Program-made: the position numbers and the translations under genes
The notes under the pieces: model-generated
Seen by the model: only the letters and a program-made list of their open reading frames with translations
What the model was told of the DNA's origin: nothing
Databases searched by the model: none
Part shown: piece after piece, positions 1 through 19,822 of the stretch
Layout: each line of letters starts with the position of its first letter
Numbering within the stretch: position 1 is the first letter of the stretch
From: Ginkgo biloba
Lineage: Eukaryota; Plantae; Ginkgophyta
Length of the DNA stretch: 19,822 nucleotides
Reading direction: 5' to 3'
Assembly: GCA_024626585.2 (NCBI GenBank)
Contig: JANKJI020000004.1
Span: 29,362,318 to 29,382,139 of the forward strand

Positions 1-12
1 ATATATATATAT

Positions 13-150
13 GATCAACTTAAAATTACATTTGCAACTCAATGGGAATCGTACAATTACAAAGTAATGCCATTTGAGTTAACAAATACACTAATAAATT
101 TCTTAAGGATCATAAATATAGTCTTTAAGGACTATTTTGAAAGACTATTT
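13..150 (+). mobile_element. Degenerate Ty3/gypsy reverse transcriptase fragment
   Basis: Frame from 13 reads DQLKITFATQWESYNYKVMPFELTNTLINFLRIINIVFKDYF. This matches the gypsy RT motif D..KT.F.T..G.Y.Y.VMPFGL.NAP..F.R.M..VF. It breaks off before the YxDD motif. Confidence 0.85.
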
Positions 151-186
151 TACATAATTTAGAGCATTGTTTTTTGTTATTTGTCA

Positions 187-1617
187 ACTTTTGACATAAC
201 ACTCCTCTTCCAACATAGAAATAACTCTTTGGTTCTTAGAGCGCACTTGTAGATGCCAATCAACTTGACTAAAATTCTTGCAACAATACAATGACTCTTT
301 CCAAGAATGATTCTTTGCCACTCTTACCCTACAATGGTGATGAGGCTATATTTTTAGGATACACTTTTCTACTTGCTTCTTCCTTGAATAACTTTGCTTT
401 TTCTCTTCTACTAATTCCTTTTGGAGTGTAGGTGTATTTTCTACTTCTTTCCCCTTATTCTTAGCTGCCATATCCTTCCTTTGACTATCTTTTTTTATTC
501 TTAGGATGAAGTTAAGGATGTAGTTTCTAACACTTTACATCATAATTCCCACTAATGTTGTAATGACAACAATAATTCTTACCACTACTTTTAGAAATTG
601 TTTCCTTTACTTCTTAGATAGTAATTCCATTCTTCTTATTTTTCGTACCCTATTCTTCTTATTGGCTCAAAGAGCGGTACTTATAACTCATGTTCTTCTT
701 GAAGTACTTAGACTCTTTAGTGATGGATTATTTCCTCTAACACATGGACACATAATGGTTGCTCTTTCCACAAAAGGAACATGAACAATAATACCAACAA
801 TGGTGTGTTATATGGCCTCTTATTTTACAATGAAAAGAAATAATAAAAGACTTCTTTGCATACCTCCTTGGGTTGCCCTTACTTAAGCTTGTACTTGGGT
901 TGTGGAGTGGTGAACCACTACCTTCTCCTTGTTCCTTGTTTGAAGGATGCCCTTTCTTTGGAGTTGCACTTGAGAATTATCCATTCTCTTTAATGCAATC
1001 AATATATATTAGACCTGTATTATGTTGCATAACATCTACCTCAATGGGATTCTTCATTCCTTGACCATTCTTTCCAAGTCCTTTACCACTANNNNNNNNN
1101 NNNNNNNNNNNNNNNTTTTCAACAACTTAGAGTCAATTCCTTTAATATGCATTTCAAAAATACCAAAGGACTCATCTTGAGAAAGAGAAACTGGTGAGGT
1201 TATTACCATTCTTACCTTTGTCACATTTTGGGCATCTCATGTAAAGGAAGACTTCCTTAGAATGGCTGACTCCTACTTCTTGACCCCTTCATACTCTTCT
1301 TGTAGCTTGGTCAATACTCATTCTTTGTCATCCAACTCTTGTTATAATTTCTCCATGGATTAAGAATTACTATTCTCCAAGTGTTTCAAATGGCTAAGGA
1401 TGGATGCTCCTTCTTGCGAGGAATGAGATTTATATTTCTCTAACTTTTGCATGACACCAATGAGAAAATCTATATGGTTGTCCAAATTATTTTATAGCTC
1501 TTCATTCTCCATTTTTATGTTTTGGATTATCTTCCCCAACTCTTGGTTATTATCACGATATTGTTGGTTGAATGCTTGAAGCTCTTGGACATTCTCTTAC
1601 TTTGAAGCTCTACCCAT
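187..1617 (-). pseudogene. Decayed ORF: coiled coil + G-patch + three CCHC zinc knuckles
   Basis: MGRASK*ENVQELQAFNQQ...(helical, E/K/Q-rich)...SFGIFEMHIKGIDSKLLK[gap]SGKGLGKNGQGMKNPIEVDV (G-patch, ~1170-1000). Then SFHCKIRGHITHHCW (838-794), CSFCGKSNHYVSMC (781-740) and CCHYNISGNYDVKC*KLHP*LHPK (571-500). One frame on each side of the N gap, many point-mutation stops, and a probable frameshift in the A-run near 490. Confidence 0.85.
202..213 (-). other. Polypurine tract candidate
   Basis: Minus strand TTGGAAGAGGAG directly followed by TGTTA, resembling the copia-type TTGAGGGGGAG|TGTT junction. Confidence 0.5.
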
Positions 1618-1654
1618 GGTTAATATATTATAGCCCCACAAGACCTAAAAAAAA

Positions 1655-1666
1655 TTTCAGATACTA
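1655..1666 (-). other. Degenerate tRNA-iMet primer-binding site
   Basis: TAGTATCTGAAA versus TGGTATCAGAGC (8/12). It lies 3 nt after a CA dinucleotide and ~40 nt before the ORF ATG. Confidence 0.45.
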
Positions 1667-2412
1667 AATTGGTATGTAGCTCAGTGGGTGAGTCAAAATA
1701 TCCTAATGTAATTAACTATAGATTATTGAACAAAATTATCTTTAAAGATAATAAAAATATTACTCTGTTTGAAATTGCATGCACTCCTATTAACTTGAAT
1801 CTAAAAAGTCAAGAGTAAATAAAAATTAGAAACACACAATTTTTTACACAAGTATAAAGTTTTAACTAGAGAAACCCTTTTGGGGAATAAAACTCCAAAA
1901 TGGTATTAAATTTCTCTTCAACAAGAATTTAGATTCAATTGTGCCAATGCTTCTATCTAGAGATGCCACTCATAGATCTTTACACAATTACAAACAGACT
2001 GAACAATGGTGTGGAACTTTTCCGTCTCACAAGGACTCTCTCACACTTTGCTTATGCAATTCTTACTGCTTCAGAACTATTCTAGCTTCTCTCTCAATGG
2101 TTGCATTCTCCTTCTGCTTGCCCTCTCTCTCTCTCAATGATTGTCTCTTGCCCCTATTCTTCGTTTTTCCCTTCGAATCCTTTCAGTTACCCTAATTGTT
2201 CGAAGTTGTTGAACCGTCTCAAGGTAGTTGAACGATTTTTGTAACTATCGAAACGACAAAAAATCGAACTACTTAATCATGGGCTACGCACAGGAAAAGT
2301 CAAGGTCAGGGANNNNNNNNNNNNNNNNNNNNNNNNNNNNNNNNNNNNNNNNNNNNNNNNNNNNNNNNNNNNNNNNNNNNNNNNNNNNNNNNNNNNNNNN
2401 NNNNNNNNNNNN

Positions 2413-2890
2413 GAATAAAATTGACCCTATATTTGACTCAAAATTATAACTAATAATCAAGAAACATATGGTGTACTATAATTATGTGAAAGGTTCATTA
2501 CTTGCATATGGACTATATAAAGACAAGTTGTTAATATACTCAAAACTAATATAAAGCTAGCATCCATATTGAGTCACTAATATTAATCTGATCATATTGG
2601 TTTAGAGAAACTCTATTCTATTCTTAGCCATTGAATATGCCTATATAAGTTTTAAAAAATTATGACTTAAATCCTTTAAAATAATAAATTAAAGAACTTT
2701 CTAAGTTTGATGGTTTCATAACATTGATTATTAATGTTGTCTATTATGTCTCAAATAATCATCCACCCTTTATTTAATAAATCTTAATTTTAGAACTTTG
2801 ATAAGGGTTGCTAAGGATTTTTATGAACATGAGTACAACAAGACTATCATGATTATTTGTGGATATATAAGTCTTTATCACATATTATCT
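2413..2890 (+). repeat. Dispersed AT-rich repeat, copy 1 (homologous to 10069-10548)
   Basis: Colinear shared blocks, e.g. ataatcaagaaacatatggt, atggactatataaagacaagttg, atatactcaaaactaata, taaatcctttaaaataataaat, tggatatataagtcttt. Confidence 0.9.
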
Positions 2891-3797
2891 ATCCTATGTA
2901 ACTAAGAAATTTATAGCGAGTGATTGTGCCCCCCCAAAACCATGAATAAAAAAGATGGAGAGAGAAAAATGCAGCTACCAACATAAAATCCATGCCATCC
3001 AATTGGTGCCCCTAGATGTCGTGTCATTAAGAAAAATAATATTTTTAATAAATTTTTTATCTCTCAAAACTCCCTCTTGTCCACTGCTCTCTAAATGTCC
3101 GTGATGTAGAGAATACATAGTCATGATAGCATTGTGGGCATCCACAACACCTACATTTTGGTTGAGAAGGGAAAATGTGAGGATAAACTTAGTGGCAAGG
3201 GAGATCAAGGGAACAAATGAGATGAGAGAGCGCTTAAGTAATATCTGGAACATAATTATTTCGCTGAGAATCATTTTGTTATCCAAGCATTGAATGCGAC
3301 CTCCCAAAGGTAACTTTAATAGGAATATGGTGAACATCCTAAATTTGGTATAAGAAAGGAAATTTTAACCAGAAACCCTTTCTTTAAGTAGTGGAGCTCA
3401 AGCTCTACAGGCATTGCGATAATACTTCATAGAGGAAAGTAAGTTAAAGAGAAAGCCTAAAATTTTTAAAGAAGAGGTTTTAAGGAATAATAAATTGTAG
3501 AAGAGATTTAGGCTATAACGGTGTTAAAATAATGGATGAGACCATTTCAACGAGATCTTGAANNNNNNNNNNNNNNNNNNNNNNNNNNNNNNNNNNTTTT
3601 TCCCACAAATATCTTGGATTTAAAGGATTACAAAATATTAATATTCAACATTTGACAAAAATTTATAAAGTAAATGTTATTGAGCATTCTAAATTTTCTT
3701 AGATTGAGTTCCTGCTACATTAAAAGAGATCCTGACCTATTTCAGTTCAATGTAGTACTCTACTGTATATTAATTTTTCACCAAAATTTTTATTTAG

Positions 3798-5488: not shown

Positions 5489-6106
5489 ATCTTGGCATCC
5501 AACTTCTTCCATAGAGATGGTGATAATCTTATTAGCAATTCCTCTAGAGTGGCATCCTTATATTCTGTTAGCAATATTTTCACTTCCTTTGGAATCTTTA
5601 TCGAATGCTCTCTTTCCATCTCTTTCGCTAACATAGCATAGCATATTCTTGTGACTCATATGCTTTTCATGAATTTCTTCATCAACAAAGTTACTTATGA
5701 TAATTCTTCTTCCTTCATCGACCATTATATGACATTCCTTCTATCTTTTCCAAAAGAGTAGGTGTGTCTTCTCCCCTTGTGCATTTCTCATTAGTCAAAC
5801 TTCTATGGTTATCCCATCAATAAGTGACATGCGTTAATCAACACTATGTNNNNNNNNNNNNNNNNNNNNNNNNNNNNNNNNNNNNACTATAAGACATTTG
5901 TCCTTGATGGTGCTCTCTCCTCCCTTTTTGAACCATGAGATTCTATATGGCATCTCATGTCATTATTGGTGGAATCCCAACTTCTAGACCATTTCCTATT
6001 ATTCCATATTCTCACAACTCCCTCTGTCAATAATCACATCATAGACTCTTCCTCCAGACTTACATCTAGTTTTGAAGATCCTCTTTCTTTGGTCCAAGTT
6101 TCTTGT
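5489..6106 (-). mobile_element. CRM-like chromovirus fragment (copy A): aspartic protease + linker fused to integrase core
   Basis: QRKRIFKTRCKSGGRVYDVIIDRGSCENM...EVKILLTEYKDATLEELLIRLSPSLWKKLDAK. Colinear with 15508-16125 (123/150 identical over 5491-5640, hand count). Confidence 0.9.
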
Positions 6107-6356: not shown

Positions 6357-6440
6357 ATCAACAATATAATTGAGCCCTTATATTATAGGAAAAATAATTT
6401 TCAAAATACCCTCTAAATATCTGTAATAAGAAATGTATAC

Positions 6441-6573
6441 CTTCTTGTTTTGGAAGTGCACTCCAACTTCCATGACCATGTTTCTGAATATGTTCCATAA
6501 TATTTTGGTCCTCTTCTAACATCCATGGACCTTTCTTCACTCCATTCTTTTCACAGCATGGTGCATGCCCCAT
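6441..6573 (-). pseudogene. MYB: R2R3-MYB transcription factor exon 1 (probably decayed; exons 2-3 not visible)
   Basis: MGHAPCCEKNGVKKGPWMLEEDQNIMEHIQKHGHGSWSALPKQE-G|gt. Exactly 133 bp with a phase-1 GT donor at 6440, the usual R2R3-MYB exon 1 structure. Conserved residues are altered (MGR>MGH, WTPEED>WMLEED, KL>NI, AG>EG). Confidence 0.9.
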
Positions 6574-6631
6574 TCTCACCACACTCAACTACAAGATTTT
6601 GTAATATTATAATCTAGCAACTAAGGTATGT

Positions 6632-10068: not shown

Positions 10069-10548
10069 GTACAAAAATGACCCTACATATAATACAAAAT
10101 TATAATTGATAATCAAGAAACATATGGTCCCACCATAATTATGTGTCAGGTTTGTTACCTTCCAATGGACTATATAAAGACAAGTTGTCCATATACTCAA
10201 AACTAATACAAAGATAGCATCCATAATGAGTCACTAATATCAATGGGATCATCTTGGATTAGATGAGCTCTATTGAGATTTATTCTTAGCCATTGTGTAG
10301 ACCTATATGAGTTGATAGATCTTATGATTTAAATCCTTTAAAATAATAAATCAAAGATATTTTCAAGATTAATGGATTCATAACATTGAATCTTAATTTT
10401 ATTTATTATGTCTAAAATAATCATTCACACTTTGTTTAATAATCTCAATTTTAGAACTTCGATAGGGTTTTTATGACAATAGCATGAGTACAATAAGACT
10501 ATCATGTTTTTTTATGGATATATAAGTCTTTGTCACCTATTATATATG
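10069..10548 (+). repeat. Dispersed AT-rich repeat, copy 2 (homologous to 2413-2890)
   Basis: Same colinear blocks as copy 1, same orientation, with small indels. Confidence 0.9.
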
Positions 10549-11721
10549 CTAACAAAAGTAGTATGATCATAAAAATATAAAGGGCATGCATATAAGAAAG
10601 AATGCTCAACTTGTTAATGATTAAGGATGTGAAATTAATATGAGAAATTGAATTGCCATATTTTTTACTAAGGTGAACACACATAGTAAGATTGTAAACT
10701 AATAAAATTCATAGTAGCTAAACTATTACATTAGCCTATTAGACAAAGCCTATTAGTTATGTTATGGAAAATTCCTAGTCCATGTCAAGCATTATAGCCT
10801 AAGTCAATTTAAAATAGTTAGTATTCTTAAGGAAGGAGAAACTTGCATAAATGTATAGAGATCAAATACATGCATATTAATACCGTCCCTAATTTTCTAC
10901 AAGAATGGGATTACAAGGCTCATAGTAACCTATTTTTAAATTTTAATGTCCACATAATAGTTATAAATGTAACTTGATTCAATTGTCATAAGACAAGATA
11001 ATTTATGTACATACACCGATAAAGATTGTTGTAATGAGTCAAACAAAACATGTCACATCATGAAATGTATGACACATTTATATTTATTAAAAGTAGGCCT
11101 AATCAATACACCCAATAAAACTAGACAAGACACATTGAAGCATAGTTTTTAATGAAATATGATTTATATGAAGTGGGTGTATTTTATGGATTTTAAGTTA
11201 ACGCAAAGAAAATAGAAGTAGGAGTAATGCTCCTATACACATTAAGATGCATATTAAGGGAAAGTAGGGTAATAAGAGAATCGTCAAGATTATGATAATG
11301 TGAATTATCACATTCACTCATATATATTTTTTAAATATTANNNNNNNNNNNNNNNNNNNNNNNNNNNNNNNNNNNNNNNNNNNNNNNNNNNNNNNNNNNN
11401 NNNNNNNNNNNNNNNNNNNNNNNNNNNNNNNNNNNNNNNNATGAGAAGATCATAGAGACTATTAGCATTAGAGATAAATTTGATGGTTTCATTGATGATC
11501 AATAAAGTTCTCAATTCATTTGTGTCATGTACGTTATTATTTATTTATTTATGTGTTGGATTCAAGATGAATTTTATTATGAAATTTATGATTTTGTCAT
11601 GTTCCCATGTATCATTCATCATCTGACTCTTATGTATTATCCATTGGGTTCTTGTATACTATTAATTCATCAGGTTGTTCATTGTCATTCATTGTAGTTC
11701 GAGAGAGTTATTTTTAATAAA

Positions 11722-12207: not shown

Positions 12208-14077
12208 CTATTTTCACAAATCATCCAAGGTTTCAAACTCATGTTGGTTCACCAAAATATCCAAGGTTCCATAGTGGCATACCAACCTATGTCGGCGACA
12301 ATCCACCACAAGGATAATAATACAAAGTGCATGAACAACTATCAATCACTGATTGATTAAACTAAGATGATAACTTAACATTACAACTAGGCCTATCAAC
12401 CACTACACACTGTTACTTATAAAAATAACATCCTTATATAGGACCCACATACAAATGAAAGTAAATAANNNNNNNNNNNNCATTATTGAAGGGGATTTCA
12501 CGATTCAAAATTAATGGGATAATATTCAAAGATGTTGTCGATGTTATGCATCATTGCTCTTTCTTTCTCTATAGGCCTTCTTTTGATGAATCTACACAAA
12601 CTCTCTAACTTGTTGATATTCCTTTGTTGACATAATTCTCAATGCCTTGCCTTGACTACCTCATGATTAATGATCTATTTGTCTTACTAAATTTTCTTTC
12701 CAAAGGTCATTGGTGGAACTACCTCTCCATCGACATTTTCCTCAGTGGTTTAGCTTTACAACTAGAAATCTACATGCACTTACTTCACCCCTGTGTATCA
12801 AGTTCATCATCTAAAGTTTCCTCATTATTGATGTTTTCTTATCCTTGTATTTTCCATAAGGTTTTCCTACTATGGGATGCCTTTGCTTTGATGTTCTGCT
12901 CCTTCTCCTTGACTGCATCTCCTTCGCTTCAACTCCACAAAATAACTAAGGAACCAACCCCCTCTACACTAACCAAATAGTTATGGAATTGAATAACCCC
13001 TTCTCTTCCTTCTCTCTAGGATATGCTTCACTCAAATTACTTGGAAGCCATTACTTCCCTCTAATAGTTCAGTTGATGAGGTTCATTATAATTATGATAG
13101 CTCTTTCTATTAATATGCCTTCAACATCCATCTCTTTCTATGGCATATCTTCTTCATTCTCTAGAGTATCTTGGTGGTTTCACCTTCAAGGCCTCTTGAA
13201 TATCCATATCTATCCTCAAGATTCTCCTGCTCTTGTATTGTCTCTTTATTAGAGGTGCAATTACCTGTTGCCATTAATTTCCAAGTGCCACCTTCTTCAT
13301 AACCCTATCTTTATCTATTATATTTTATTGGTATATTATTTGGTGTTTCAAAATGACTCATTTATGGCTTGACATGCCTACCACTTTGTCCCTTCATTGC
13401 TTGTTTTCTAGACATGGTTCTCATTTGTGGTCAACCACCACTCATTGCTCATCTACTAGACATTGGATGTGCTAATGGTTTTCTAACCTTCATCACTCAT
13501 GTGCCAGATATGGGTCTTCCACACTTTATATCATGTCTACCAAACATGGGTATTCCACCCTCTTAGTCTTATCTTATAGATATATATTTTTCACACTTTG
13601 CCACTTGACTTTTAGACATATGTCTATCACCCTTTATCACTCATCTACTATACATAGGTATGCTACCTTTTGTCTATTATCTACCAGACATAGGTTTTCC
13701 ACCCTTCATTGCTTGTTTACCAAACATGTGTTTTCCACCCTTTGTCCCTCATCTTCCATAAATAGGCCTCCCACCCTTTGTCATTCATCTTCTAGACATG
13801 GGTCTACCACCCTTTGTTGCTTATGTACTAGACACGGGTCTACCACCCTTATCCCCTAATAACCCTATTAGTGCTTTGGTTAGTCACCCATTTTTGGTGA
13901 TACTATTCACCTTGGTGACATGCATTGTCCACCCTTCCTCATTATTTTCATTATCGTTCAATCTTATATTTTCTAAAATTTTCCTTGGGACTTATCTACT
14001 ACACCATTCTGGTCGACTCTTCCAAAACTTTATAAAATTTTCACTTTGTCATGTGCTATTGAGATGCTCTTGCATCA
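12208..14077 (-). mobile_element. Long (>=1.8 kb) 3' LTR of chromovirus copy C
   Basis: Starts TGATGCA at 14077 directly after the PPT AAGTAAGGGAGGA (14090-14078). The first ~80 nt are homologous to 14674-14592. Candidate TATA box CCTATATAAGG at 12442-12432. The distal end is not seen (gap), so the extent is inferred. Confidence 0.6.
13369..13863. repeat. Tandem array of 36-bp units (plus 48-, 48- and 39-bp variants)
   Basis: Unit starts at 13504, 13540, 13576, 13612, 13648, 13684, 13720, 13756, 13792 and 13828; variants start at 13369, 13408 and 13456. Consensus approx. c(c/t)agacatgggtcttccaccctttgtcactcatcta. Confidence 0.92.
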
Positions 14078-14491
14078 TCCTCCCTTACTTATAAAAATGT
14101 ATAGGTCCTCTTACATGTGCTCCTCCTTGAATATTTTCTACTTCTCCATATTCAGTCCTCTAAAATCCTTCTTAATAATTCAAGTATTGTCCTCTTGGGG
14201 TAATCCTTCCCATTTTACCAAATATCTAGTGTAGCTACCACATCTAGTATTTATGACCTTTATGTCCAACACTTATTCAATATTCTCTTTCTTCCTTCTT
14301 GGCATATATTGTTTCCAATCAACCACTTATTCATTTGAATATTTATCTCCATGATATTGTTATAAGTCTACGACATTGAATATTGATGAAATTTTATAAT
14401 CTATTAGTAGATCCACCTCACAGGCATTCTCATTTATCTTATTAGTGATCTGAGATGGTTCGATCTTTTTGTATTTTTATGTGTTGTAGGT
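14075..14491 (-). mobile_element. Chromovirus copy C: integrase C-terminus (GPY/F module) + chromodomain + PPT
   Basis: KKIEPSQITNKINENACEVDLLIDYKISSIFNVVDL*QYHG...IE*VLDIKV...YTRYLVKWEGLPQEDNT*. Colinear with 14672-15090. Confidence 0.92.
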
Positions 14492-14591
14492 NNNNNNNNN
14501 NNNNNNNNNNNNNNNNNNNNNNNNNNNNNNNNNNNNNNNNNNNNNNNNNNNNNNNNNNNNNNNNNNNNNNNNNNNNNNNNNNNNNNNNNNN

Positions 14592-17004
14592 TCTGTTATG
14601 ACCTTTCGGTTAGTTCTACCAAAACTTCACAAAATTTGTACTCTAACAATTATGGTTGGGATATTTTTGCGTCATCCTTCCTTACTTACAAAAAAATGTA
14701 GGTCCTCCTACAAGTTATCCTCCTCAAATATTTGCCACTTTTCTTCCTCCAATCTTTTGATTTCCTCCTCCATAATCCAAGTGTTGTCTTCTTGGGCTAG
14801 TCCTTCCCACTTTACCAAATATCTAGTGTAGCTTCCTCCTTTAGTCTCTACAACCTTTCTATCCAACACTTTATCAATTATCACTTTCTTTCTTCTTAGC
14901 ATTTATAATTTCTAGTCAACCACTTCTTTATGTGTCTCTTCATCACCATGATACTGGTATAAGTATGAAAGATTAAATACTGATGAAATGCCATATTCTA
15001 TTAGTAGGTCCACCTTGTAGGCATTCTCATTTATCTTTTTAGTGATTTGACATGGTCTAATCTTTTTGTATTTCATCTTGTTATAGGTTCATGTTGAAAA
15101 CTTATCCTTCCTTAGGAATACCATGACCATATCCCTAACTTTAAATTCTTTATGTCGGTGATGTTTTTTTTCTATCAATTTGTATCCTACATTTCTCTTT
15201 GTCAAAAGTCCTCATGAATTTCTTCATATGTTCTACCATGGCTTTGGCATCATCATTGACCCTTTGTCTTCTTAGAATCTCAACCAACTCCACCACTATC
15301 TTCAAAAACCTTCCATATATGATCTAAAATGGTGTCAACCTTATTGACTTGTTCATCGAGTTTTCGTATGCAAAATCAACTTGTGAAAGTATCATATATC
15401 ACTACTTAGGTTTGTCTCCTGTTAAACTTTGCAATTGATTATTCAACAATCAATTCATCACCTCTTTCTTCCTATCAGTCTATGGGTGGTATGAACTACT
15501 ATACTATAGCTTAGCATCCAACTTCTTCCATAGTATTAACAACAATCTTATTGGCAATTCCTCTAGAGTGACATTCTTGTATTCTATTATCGATATTTTG
15601 ACTTCCTTAGGAATCTCTATCGATTGATCCCTTTTCACCTCATTCACTAACATAGCATGGAACATTCCTATGACTCACATGATTTTTATGAATTGATTCA
15701 CCAACAAAGTTACTTATGATAATTATTCTTTCTTCATCGGATGCTATATGAAATTCCTTCCATCTTTGCCAAAAGAGTAGGTGTGTCTTCTCTTATTGTG
15801 AATTACTTGTTAGTCAAAATGCCATGGTCATCTCATAAATAAGTGACATATGTCCACTGACACTATGTAATACCATGCTTGGCCTTGATAGTTTCCCATA
15901 TAGAATACTATAAGACATCTCTCCTTAATGGTGATCTCGCCTCCCTTCTTGAACCATGAGATTCTATGTGGCATCTCATATCATTGTCGATGGAATCCCA
16001 AATTCTAGACCATTTCCTATTATACTATATTCTCAAAAATGCCTCTGTCAATGATCACATAATAGGATCTTCATCTAAACTTACATCTCATTCTAAATAT
16101 CCTCTTTATTTGGTCCAAGTTTCTTATTAGTATTTGATTATCTATGATATTATCTTGAGCATCTATCATTTGGATTTATTCTCTATCTACCAACTTCCCT
16201 TTATCCTTTGTCTATGGATTTTGTGGGTGTCTCTTACCTATGGTAAACTTTCTCCTTGATGATAACATCATACTTTGAGTTATTGATGTCTCTAACCTAT
16301 TAGTTGTCACATGCTCAAGCTTTGCCTCTTCATGGAGCAATTTGTCCTTTGGCTCCTTAGGTCTTAGTCTATCATCTTTCCTCCTTGGAAATTAAAAGGC
16401 TCTATGACCTTCCACACTACATATAAAATATGTTTTCATCCTTCTATGTTCATAATATGCTCTTTCCATTCATCCTCCTCTCATATGGAAGAATCTACTT
16501 TGCCCTTTTACTCGATAAATATTGAATTCACCTCATAGCCTCAATGGTGCATCATGACCATACCTTATGGTGGTATCACTCCTTGAGCTACCTTCACCAT
16601 TATACCTCTTGATATTTCTTCCCTACATTTGGTATGATGTTCCCATCTCTCTGATGAATGGTCTCTTCCTTGTGTTTCTGGCTATCTTTTCTTTGGCCTT
16701 CATTGCCAACTAATAAGCTTCATCCATAATTTTCACATGATGCATAGAAATTTAGTCTTGAACAAGGTAATTCAAATAATTTTCATATCTTGATATTAAC
16801 TTCTCCTCATATTCATTGTGTCCACTTTGAATGTATAGTTTGAAGAACTCATCAGTGTACATAGGTATAACTTTATCTCTTTGCCTTAGGTTTTAGAGTT
16901 CTCAAAACAACCTCTGACTGTAGTTTGTAGGTAGAAATTTTTCTTTCATCTTGATAACCATCTTCTTACATTTTTTAATGTTCTCTTTGTCTTTATAGGT
17001 TCTT
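14592..17004 (-). mobile_element. CRM-like chromovirus copy B: gag, zinc knuckle, protease, [RT/RH deleted], partial integrase, chromodomain, PPT, LTR start
   Basis: Gag KMKEKFLPTNYSQRLF*EL*NLRQ...YTDEFFKL; knuckle YFICSVEGHRAF*FP (16430-16389); protease VIIDRG (D at 16049-16047) and DICHLFMR*PW; integrase LWKKLDAKL*YSSSYHP*TD...FAYENS...TPF*IIYG; INENAYKVDL; chromodomain IDKVLD...YLVKWEGLAQEDNTW; PPT 14687-14675; LTR from 14674 (TGACGCA). Confidence 0.95.
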
Positions 17005-19704: not shown

Positions 19705-19822
19705 TATATAGAACCTAGAATTCAAGAGAATAAGTAAAATTGGTCATTCATATCAATATCATACAACCACTATAGATTTTTAACTAGGGAAACCATTTGG
19801 GGAGTAAAAGTCTAGATTATTA
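19705..19822 (-). mobile_element. Fragment related to the LTR-like region at 1795-1900
   Basis: tttaactagggaaaccatttggggagtaaaa (19779-19809) versus tttaactagagaaacccttttggggaataaaa (1861-1892). An upstream block gaa(c/t)cta.aa..tcaagag is also shared. Confidence 0.55.

Follow-up and report, generated by a model that had tools for sequence, protein, structure and literature searches.

Why should a stretch of plant DNA framed by the signals of a long terminal repeat (LTR) retrotransposon carry, as its only open reading frame (ORF), a protein that joins a predicted coiled coil to a G-patch and several CCHC zinc knuckles, with neither a capsid domain nor a pol region? The question is raised by one end of a 19,822-nucleotide (nt) stretch of the Ginkgo biloba genome (contig JANKJI020000004.1, positions 29,362,318 to 29,382,139 of the forward strand; the whole stretch is hereafter called the window), whose minus strand holds such a frame in broken form. 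We suggest that this is a decayed copy of a non-autonomous LTR element, encoding a knuckle/G-patch adaptor protein and having its RNA packaged by a helper, and we put the chances for and against this reading as a whole about level.

The frame runs on the minus strand from an ATG at 1617 to 202, a total of 472 codons, in agreement with an initial annotation that had read a stop-riddled frame of about 470 codons from the same ATG using the sequence letters alone. The first part (1117-1617) comprises 167 codons and 7 stops up to a run of 24 N at 1092-1115, and includes the start methionine, the predicted coiled coil (about 1617-1240), a linker and, from 1167 on, the first third of the G-patch. 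A second frame at 1090-452 adds 213 codons with 11 stops, and another frame shift near 460 carries the ORF on through a basic, charged tail (212-499) that has no pol domain and gives no Pfam match of weight in three frames. From the right half of the ORF alone, Pfam PF01585 recognizes the G-patch (1004-1167) with E=2e-6 and a score of 28 bits against a curated cut-off of 22; the clear G-patch of the annotation thus stands up to the HMMER check proposed for it. For the helical region, the hydrophobic moment at heptad spacing is about 0.9-1.3 over residues 15-126 (no control was computed), and Pfam coiled-coil matches are sub-threshold only. The annotation had also described two adjacent CX2CX4HX4C knuckles and a third one further on, which holds only in part for this copy: the second knuckle (781-740) matches the pattern exactly, but the first (838-797) retains three of its four zinc ligands and the third (571-530, extending with its KLHP.LHPK tail to 500) retains two. 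All three are found complete in homologues, the first in P0015 and the third in P0019, P0022 and P0027. The tail of the third knuckle in the window, which the annotation had likened to that of copia Gag, has no Pfam match, the left half of the ORF by itself has no significant match in the PDB, and a word-based protein search using a decayed ORF half returned nothing.

The run of N falls inside the G-patch, where the annotation had predicted that the true gap is 10 nt long and restores the motif K-x-M-G-Y. Paralogous contigs agree, since in 37 contigs of sequencing run X1 and 46 of run X3 the loose ends are exactly 10 letters long before the match to the window resumes at 1116. A gap of this length brings the two halves of the ORF into a common frame, and the corresponding residues of intact homologues are L-L-x-[KR]-M-G-Y.

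The form of the undecayed protein can be read from these homologues. A profile search of 2797 candidates returned 47 proteins in which a G-patch is the sole precomputed Pfam domain, and a HMMER search gave 14 matches, 11 of them family fragments; P0006, P0014 and P0016 were excluded from the counts because they probably match through low complexity or a generic knuckle (P0006 and P0016 were set aside without inspection). In complete homologues a methionine and a coil are followed by a G-patch or two, then by a knuckle or two and a stop. P0022, P0027, P0028, P0029 and P0036 are intact ORFs of 341-422 amino acids (aa), natural counterparts of the intact consensus ORF for which the annotation had proposed to test. 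Both halves of the window ORF align to intact homologues from Met1 through the last knuckle, the first part being collinear with P0022 (hhalign probability 94%, E=1e-7) and the stretch 1090-452 matching the family at a probability of 97%. In 27 of 89 stored proteins the G-patch and a knuckle share one frame, with a stop 6-161 residues past the last knuckle. One cluster at 90% identity has 30 members, and the 15 listed lie on separate contigs of 11.7-70.9 kb.

The annotation saw no capsid domain, and none has appeared since. Pfam reports only the G-patch in 11 homologues, with E-values of 3e-10 to 4e-21 in the intact ones, and finds no UBN2 or Retrotrans_gag match either there or in the window. 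Similarly, a PDB profile search with the family recovers no capsid. An AlphaFold2 model of P0022, built from 18 sequences, has a single helix at residues 4-80 (predicted local distance difference test scores of 96-98), followed by disorder and a knuckle, and this mostly low-confidence model contains no globular capsid fold. A weak search of 7979 candidates of 740-2110 aa, which left 612-739 aa uncovered, gave no homologue, and no relative was found in the viral contigs and prokaryotic genome contigs searched.

All 14 diverged pairs of copies have a ratio of nonsynonymous to synonymous substitution rates (dN/dS) of 0.26-0.52, below the value of one against which the annotation had proposed to test it, with the proviso that the pairs are not independent and that guiding the alignment by protein reduces dN. 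When the DNA is aligned by itself, the third codon position is the least conserved in six of six pairs, with p<0.01 in four. Together these patterns indicate an ORF that was selected as a protein while the families diverged and that decays after insertion. Because the constraint persists among copies only about 65% alike, the short ORF is old, rather than the product of a private deletion.

The element that carries this ORF is a repeat. Contigs of four sequencing runs, matched to the window at 80% likeness, cover positions 1-2280 more deeply than the sequence beyond 2413, by one to four orders of magnitude; in run X1 the summed contig depth is 1,500-740,000 over the first interval and 83-600 over the second. 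Given a depth of about 80 for single contigs, the excess corresponds to some hundreds of copies, and by this rough measure the window element has several hundred diverged copies. Contig sets available for this organism run to 6-8 billion letters, which points to a very large genome. Two raw RNA runs, sampled at 6% and 2%, contained 11 and 29 matching reads, none of them at least 95% alike.

Other copies also show two boundaries of the repeat. At position 201, 59 and 65 contigs start to match, with unrelated flanks (agreement 0.39-0.42). Near the opposite boundary, three runs have loose ends at 1683 (in 112, 94 and 68 contigs, respectively), and 13 further letters are shared, the last of which are the CA equivalent to 1670. 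Seven of eight letters at the 201 start are complementary to the end at 1670, as is true of 19 of the 2437 TG-starting 8-mers in the window, and the two form short inverted TG...CA termini like the TGAT...ATCA of the related locus L006. What can be seen of the likely 5′ LTR (1670-2312, minus strand) ends in ACATACCA at 1670 with a C-rich stretch at 1692-1684, and the LTR starts in or beyond a second N run at 2313-2412; contig depth is high over 1597-2280, maximal over 1597-1938 and at single-copy level past 2413. A 43-nt motif of this LTR (1853-1895) recurs at 19771-19812 with 84% identity, and its contig cover, by far the deepest of the region, marks it as common to very many elements. On the inner side lies a decayed tRNA-Met-type primer-binding site (PBS; 1666-1655, minus strand), which agrees at 8 of 12 letters with L001 and L006, whose full site directly precedes the same ORF. 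Downstream of the ORF, at 211-202, the polypurine tract (PPT) GGAAGAGGAG leads into TG and the likely start of the 3′ LTR (TGTTATGT..., 1-201, minus strand). Ten purines precede 15 of the 2437 TG in the window, and three of these tracts have six or more G. The PBS and PPT lie 1.44 kb apart; the annotation had put the distance at about 1.45 kb. We consider it highly probable that the ends at 201 and 1670 belong to a true LTR pair. A nested, unrelated insertion beginning at 201 is less likely: many paralogues do continue differently at 202, but the purine tract and the match of seven in eight letters to the 1670 end speak for a terminus.

Seven metagenome loci, L001 to L007, place the same ORF in comparable surroundings. 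In each of the three that include 5′ sequence, a CA end is followed by a tRNA-Met primer site ahead of the ORF; in L001, L003 and L006 the sequence TGGTATCA(G/A)AGC is located 20, 182 and 218 nt before it, the site being full in L001 and L006 and matching in 11 of 12 letters in L003. In L006 and L007 the ORF is followed downstream by GGGGAGGA(A/G) and directly thereafter TGAT, and in L006 the distance from primer site to tract is 1789 nt. The contig ends of L003, L005 and L006 match internal sites in inverted orientation at 97%; these three are therefore probably amplification chimeras whose flanks are untrustworthy.

What would such a protein do? Among solved structures, the top match of the G-patch is TFIP11 when single sequences are searched (three of three) and fission-yeast Ntr1 when the profile is used, in a PDB that contains few G-patches and none from a plant or a retrotransposon. 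TFIP11 and Ntr1 are activators of the helicase Prp43/DHX15. The likeness to host TFIP11/Ntr1/Spp382 (PDB 8ro2_TF, 9esh_m and 5y88_U) includes an upstream F-x-x-F/W-E-x-x-T-x-G-I-G, but extends over only about 50-70 residues, whereas the host protein has about 800 aa, is encoded by a single gene and shows no knuckles in the alignments. The brace-helix, aromatic residue and GLG of the G-patch consensus are all present. The first G-patch has Tyr at the aromatic site equivalent to that found in Mason-Pfizer monkey virus (hereafter M-PMV) in all 32 proteins listed, which were selected with a G-patch profile and so are not independent evidence. Of 36 parsed G-patch stretches, 31 have an aromatic residue here, the five exceptions all being second copies, and 35 have Gly following Leu. 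P0026, P0031, P0042, P0045, P0049 and P0052 make up a subfamily with two G-patches, the first canonical and the second consistently altered (RMRH..EEELG) yet in frame.

The retroviral precedent is M-PMV, in which the G-patch recruits DHX15, a helicase required there for genome packaging and reverse transcription, and in which binding depends on the aromatic residue (Y880; W564 in NKRF) and on glycines (PMC11459146; the publications cited here and below by database identifier are drawn on in excerpt). The betaretroviral G-patch shares these key aromatic and glycine residues with ours, but it lies between the protease and reverse transcriptase (RT) of an autonomous virus (PMC11459146), whereas in the window family it belongs to a stand-alone ORF, upstream of the knuckles and without any enzyme. 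By analogy, the knuckles would bind the RNA of the element, the G-patch would recruit and activate host Prp43/DHX15, the coil would oligomerize or dock onto the Gag of a helper, and the helicase would remodel the element RNA for packaging and reverse transcription in helper-supplied particles. These steps differ in strength. Mobilization of the family by a helper element is probable, and binding of the G-patch to Prp43 is, judged from its residues, reasonably likely. Whether its purpose is to have the element's RNA packaged or reverse-transcribed, and not to control splicing, export or silencing, is a question on which we are evenly divided. Helicase recruitment and competition for helper particles, which the annotation had put forward, are both extrapolated from the M-PMV case (PMC11459146).

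The strongest competing account keeps the same element but moves its protein to the nucleus, where it would use or sequester Prp43 so that the element's RNA stays unspliced, is exported, or meets weaker RNA surveillance and silencing, and would never enter a particle. The best match of the G-patch, TFIP11/Ntr1, is indeed a spliceosome-disassembly factor, there is no capsid domain for co-assembly, and in M-PMV DHX15 binds close to the RNA export element (PMC11459146). Knuckles of the nucleocapsid type, in an ORF that occupies the gag position after the primer site, suit packaging, and we regard the nuclear account as unlikely, at perhaps one chance in a handful.

Packaging of a short, helper-dependent element must also be weighed against several observations that do not favor it. 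No paired LTR is seen in the window, where the score of 1-201 against 1668-2312 was equalled by 53 of 200 shuffles (matching parts would fall in the N run at 2313-2412 or outside the window), or in any of the seven loci, where they would lie past the ends of the contigs; and no target-site duplication is seen, the outer ends of the element being outside the sequence examined. L001, L002/L004, L003 and L005 have no clear polypurine tract near the end of the ORF. The inverted repeat described at copia PPT junctions is not significant in the window (617 of 1000 shuffles). The lone close pair of copies has a dN/dS of 1.67, based on few changes, as expected for dead copies. In a few paralogous contigs the core of the G-patch is 21-27 nt shorter, and many homologues lack the first one or two knuckles. 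Nor did a helper element emerge from the sequences examined. Finally, 65 and 67 contigs (92 in run X2) run past 202 into one further sequence that they share and that does not start with TG, indicating that longer forms are common and that the short form may be a minority. The non-autonomous family proposed by the annotation is thus supported by copy number, primer site, a single ORF devoid of capsid and pol, intact relatives and coding constraint, but not by LTR pairs.

The contigs that continue past 202 also argue that the ORF belongs to a longer, autonomous or nearly autonomous element, either as an extension of the Gag tail or as an additional ORF, with the short forms being deletion products. 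Sirevirus gag has a coiled coil and a CCHC knuckle (PMC2829016), and the LTR end of the window resembles the Sirevirus CA/ATTGG/TATCAGAGC junction, in a decayed version one letter longer, with a C-rich signal near the LTR end; G-patches occur in dicot gypsy elements (PMC9289625). The tails of L002, L004 and L007 also look like gypsy integrase ends, and the N-terminus of L003 and L006 like a gypsy Gag start, although Pfam and local tblastn confirmed neither assignment. Sireviruses have a AGGGGGAG-AT-TG junction, multiple tracts and an inverted repeat (PMC2829016), whereas the window has GAAGAGGAG directly followed by TG without AT, a single tract, and no capsid or pol; and the dicot G-patches are reported in gypsy consensus sequences and in none of copia, the excerpted text mentioning no capsid-less, single-ORF form (PMC9289625). 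The ORF opens with a conserved MG[KR] only 20-37 nt after the primer site, which leaves no room for a capsid. Intact proteins end without a protease, L006 measures only 1.8 kb from primer site to tract, and constraint holds across copies about 65% alike. That most copies continue into a normal pol, an outcome that the annotation had named as fatal to its proposal, is not borne out as far as tested, protease and RT motifs being absent from all 89 stored proteins; the 65-67 contigs per run that extend past 202 do show that longer forms exist. On balance a longer parent element is improbable, at odds of a die roll.

It is also conceivable that the ORF is a functionless fragment of a host TFIP11/NTR1-like mRNA captured by an element. 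In its favor, L001 has, directly after the G-patch ORF at 2290-3050, intron-less pieces of callose synthase in altered order (Pfam profile positions 172-295, then 19-94), which are likely to be host mRNA captured by the element. Such capture is well known in LTR elements, as in maize Bs1, a defective LTR element whose host-derived coding pieces are enzyme fragments (PMC13317346, PMC4350172). A captured fragment would hardly, however, keep its frame and motifs across diverged families, remain open in dozens of copies, or hold a duplicated G-patch in frame in six proteins, and this origin is very improbable. An ordinary host gene or processed pseudogene lying beside unrelated LTR fragments, for which it can be said that G-patch and zinc finger are a frequent host combination (PMC13111387), is close to refuted by the hundreds of copies, the complementary termini and the primer site ahead of the ORF in four independent loci; the single-copy, intron-containing host genes that the annotation had offered as a refutation have likewise failed to appear as far as tested, the family being multi-copy and the five loci read being free of introns.

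Returning to the helper-dependent element, the related loci raise the further possibility that its gene is portable. In L003 (781-1200) and L006 (6509-6790) a different N-terminal region replaces the coil, and both loci have an additional knuckle-like motif immediately after the G-patch and termini of the form TGAT...ATCA. Different N-termini aside, the LTR shells themselves differ, with TGTT...ACCA in the window and TGAT...ATCA in L006 and L007. This suggests that the cassette occupies more than one LTR lineage. A tentative extension, for which we would claim a minority chance, is that a TFIP11-derived G-patch joined to nucleocapsid knuckles forms a portable accessory gene, the sole ORF in several unrelated LTR shells, and that the resulting satellites hijack both the particle of a helper and the Prp43 of the host, converging on betaretroviral packaging.

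How does such a family relate to the non-autonomous elements already described? The closest are TR-GAG elements, which are likewise short and non-autonomous and have a PBS, a PPT and, where gag would lie, one ORF that includes a CCHC finger (Chaparro et al. 2015, PMC4350172). With a single ORF and an internal region of 1.44-1.8 kb, LTRs not included, the window family can be compared with the TR-GAG definition of a single ORF and less than 4 kb. What defines a TR-GAG, however, is its capsid domain, either UBN2 or Retrotrans_gag (PMC4350172), whereas none was found in the window family, in which a coil and a G-patch precede the knuckles. TRIM and LARD elements are defined as non-coding (bioRxiv 10.64898/2026.03.01.708851), in contrast to the intact, constrained ORF found here. 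BARE-2 of barley borrows the capsid of a helper and retains pol (PMC13317346, PMC4350172); compared with BARE-2 and Bs1, the window family lacks both capsid and pol and conserves one RNA-processing ORF. Our literature search, which had repeat databases and large extra-ORF tables outside its range, turned up no account of an element that joins G-patch and knuckle without a capsid, nor any publication combining a G-patch with a zinc knuckle, conifer or gymnosperm; there is no G-patch in the excerpted text and five small supplement files of PMC6317226. Thus, this is likely a non-autonomous LTR family distinct from TR-GAG, of a type for which we found no description.

The remainder of the window contains other features. 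About 4 kb upstream of the element, a gene for a MYB-type transcription factor has its first exon on the minus strand at 6361-6588; the PDB matches of this exon are Myb repeats, including that of plant WER. A decayed gypsy-like element occupies the minus strand at 13390-17000; read by eye, it passes from gag and a protease-like stretch almost at once into an integrase-like tail, and no RT is seen in between. An array of 36-nt repeats at 13390-13850 comes after this tail. Diverged duplications of 77-81% identity pair 2417-2896 with 10073-10551, 5491-6104 with 15510-16125, and 14018-14476 with 14615-15073. The last pair is a tandem repeat of what looks like an integrase/chromodomain tail.

Non-autonomous LTR elements described so far are non-coding (TRIM, LARD), encode only a capsid (TR-GAG), or lack a capsid but bear pol (BARE-2). 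If our reading is true, the Ginkgo family would add a further design, in which both capsid and pol have been dropped and an RNA-processing protein has been conserved. Such a family would escape classifiers keyed to Gag, RT or integrase, even at hundreds of copies in very large plant genomes. Its small, stand-alone and naturally intact protein would be well suited for asking if plant retroelements, like M-PMV, make use of Prp43/DHX15, and the answer may bear on why retroelements have gained G-patches repeatedly.

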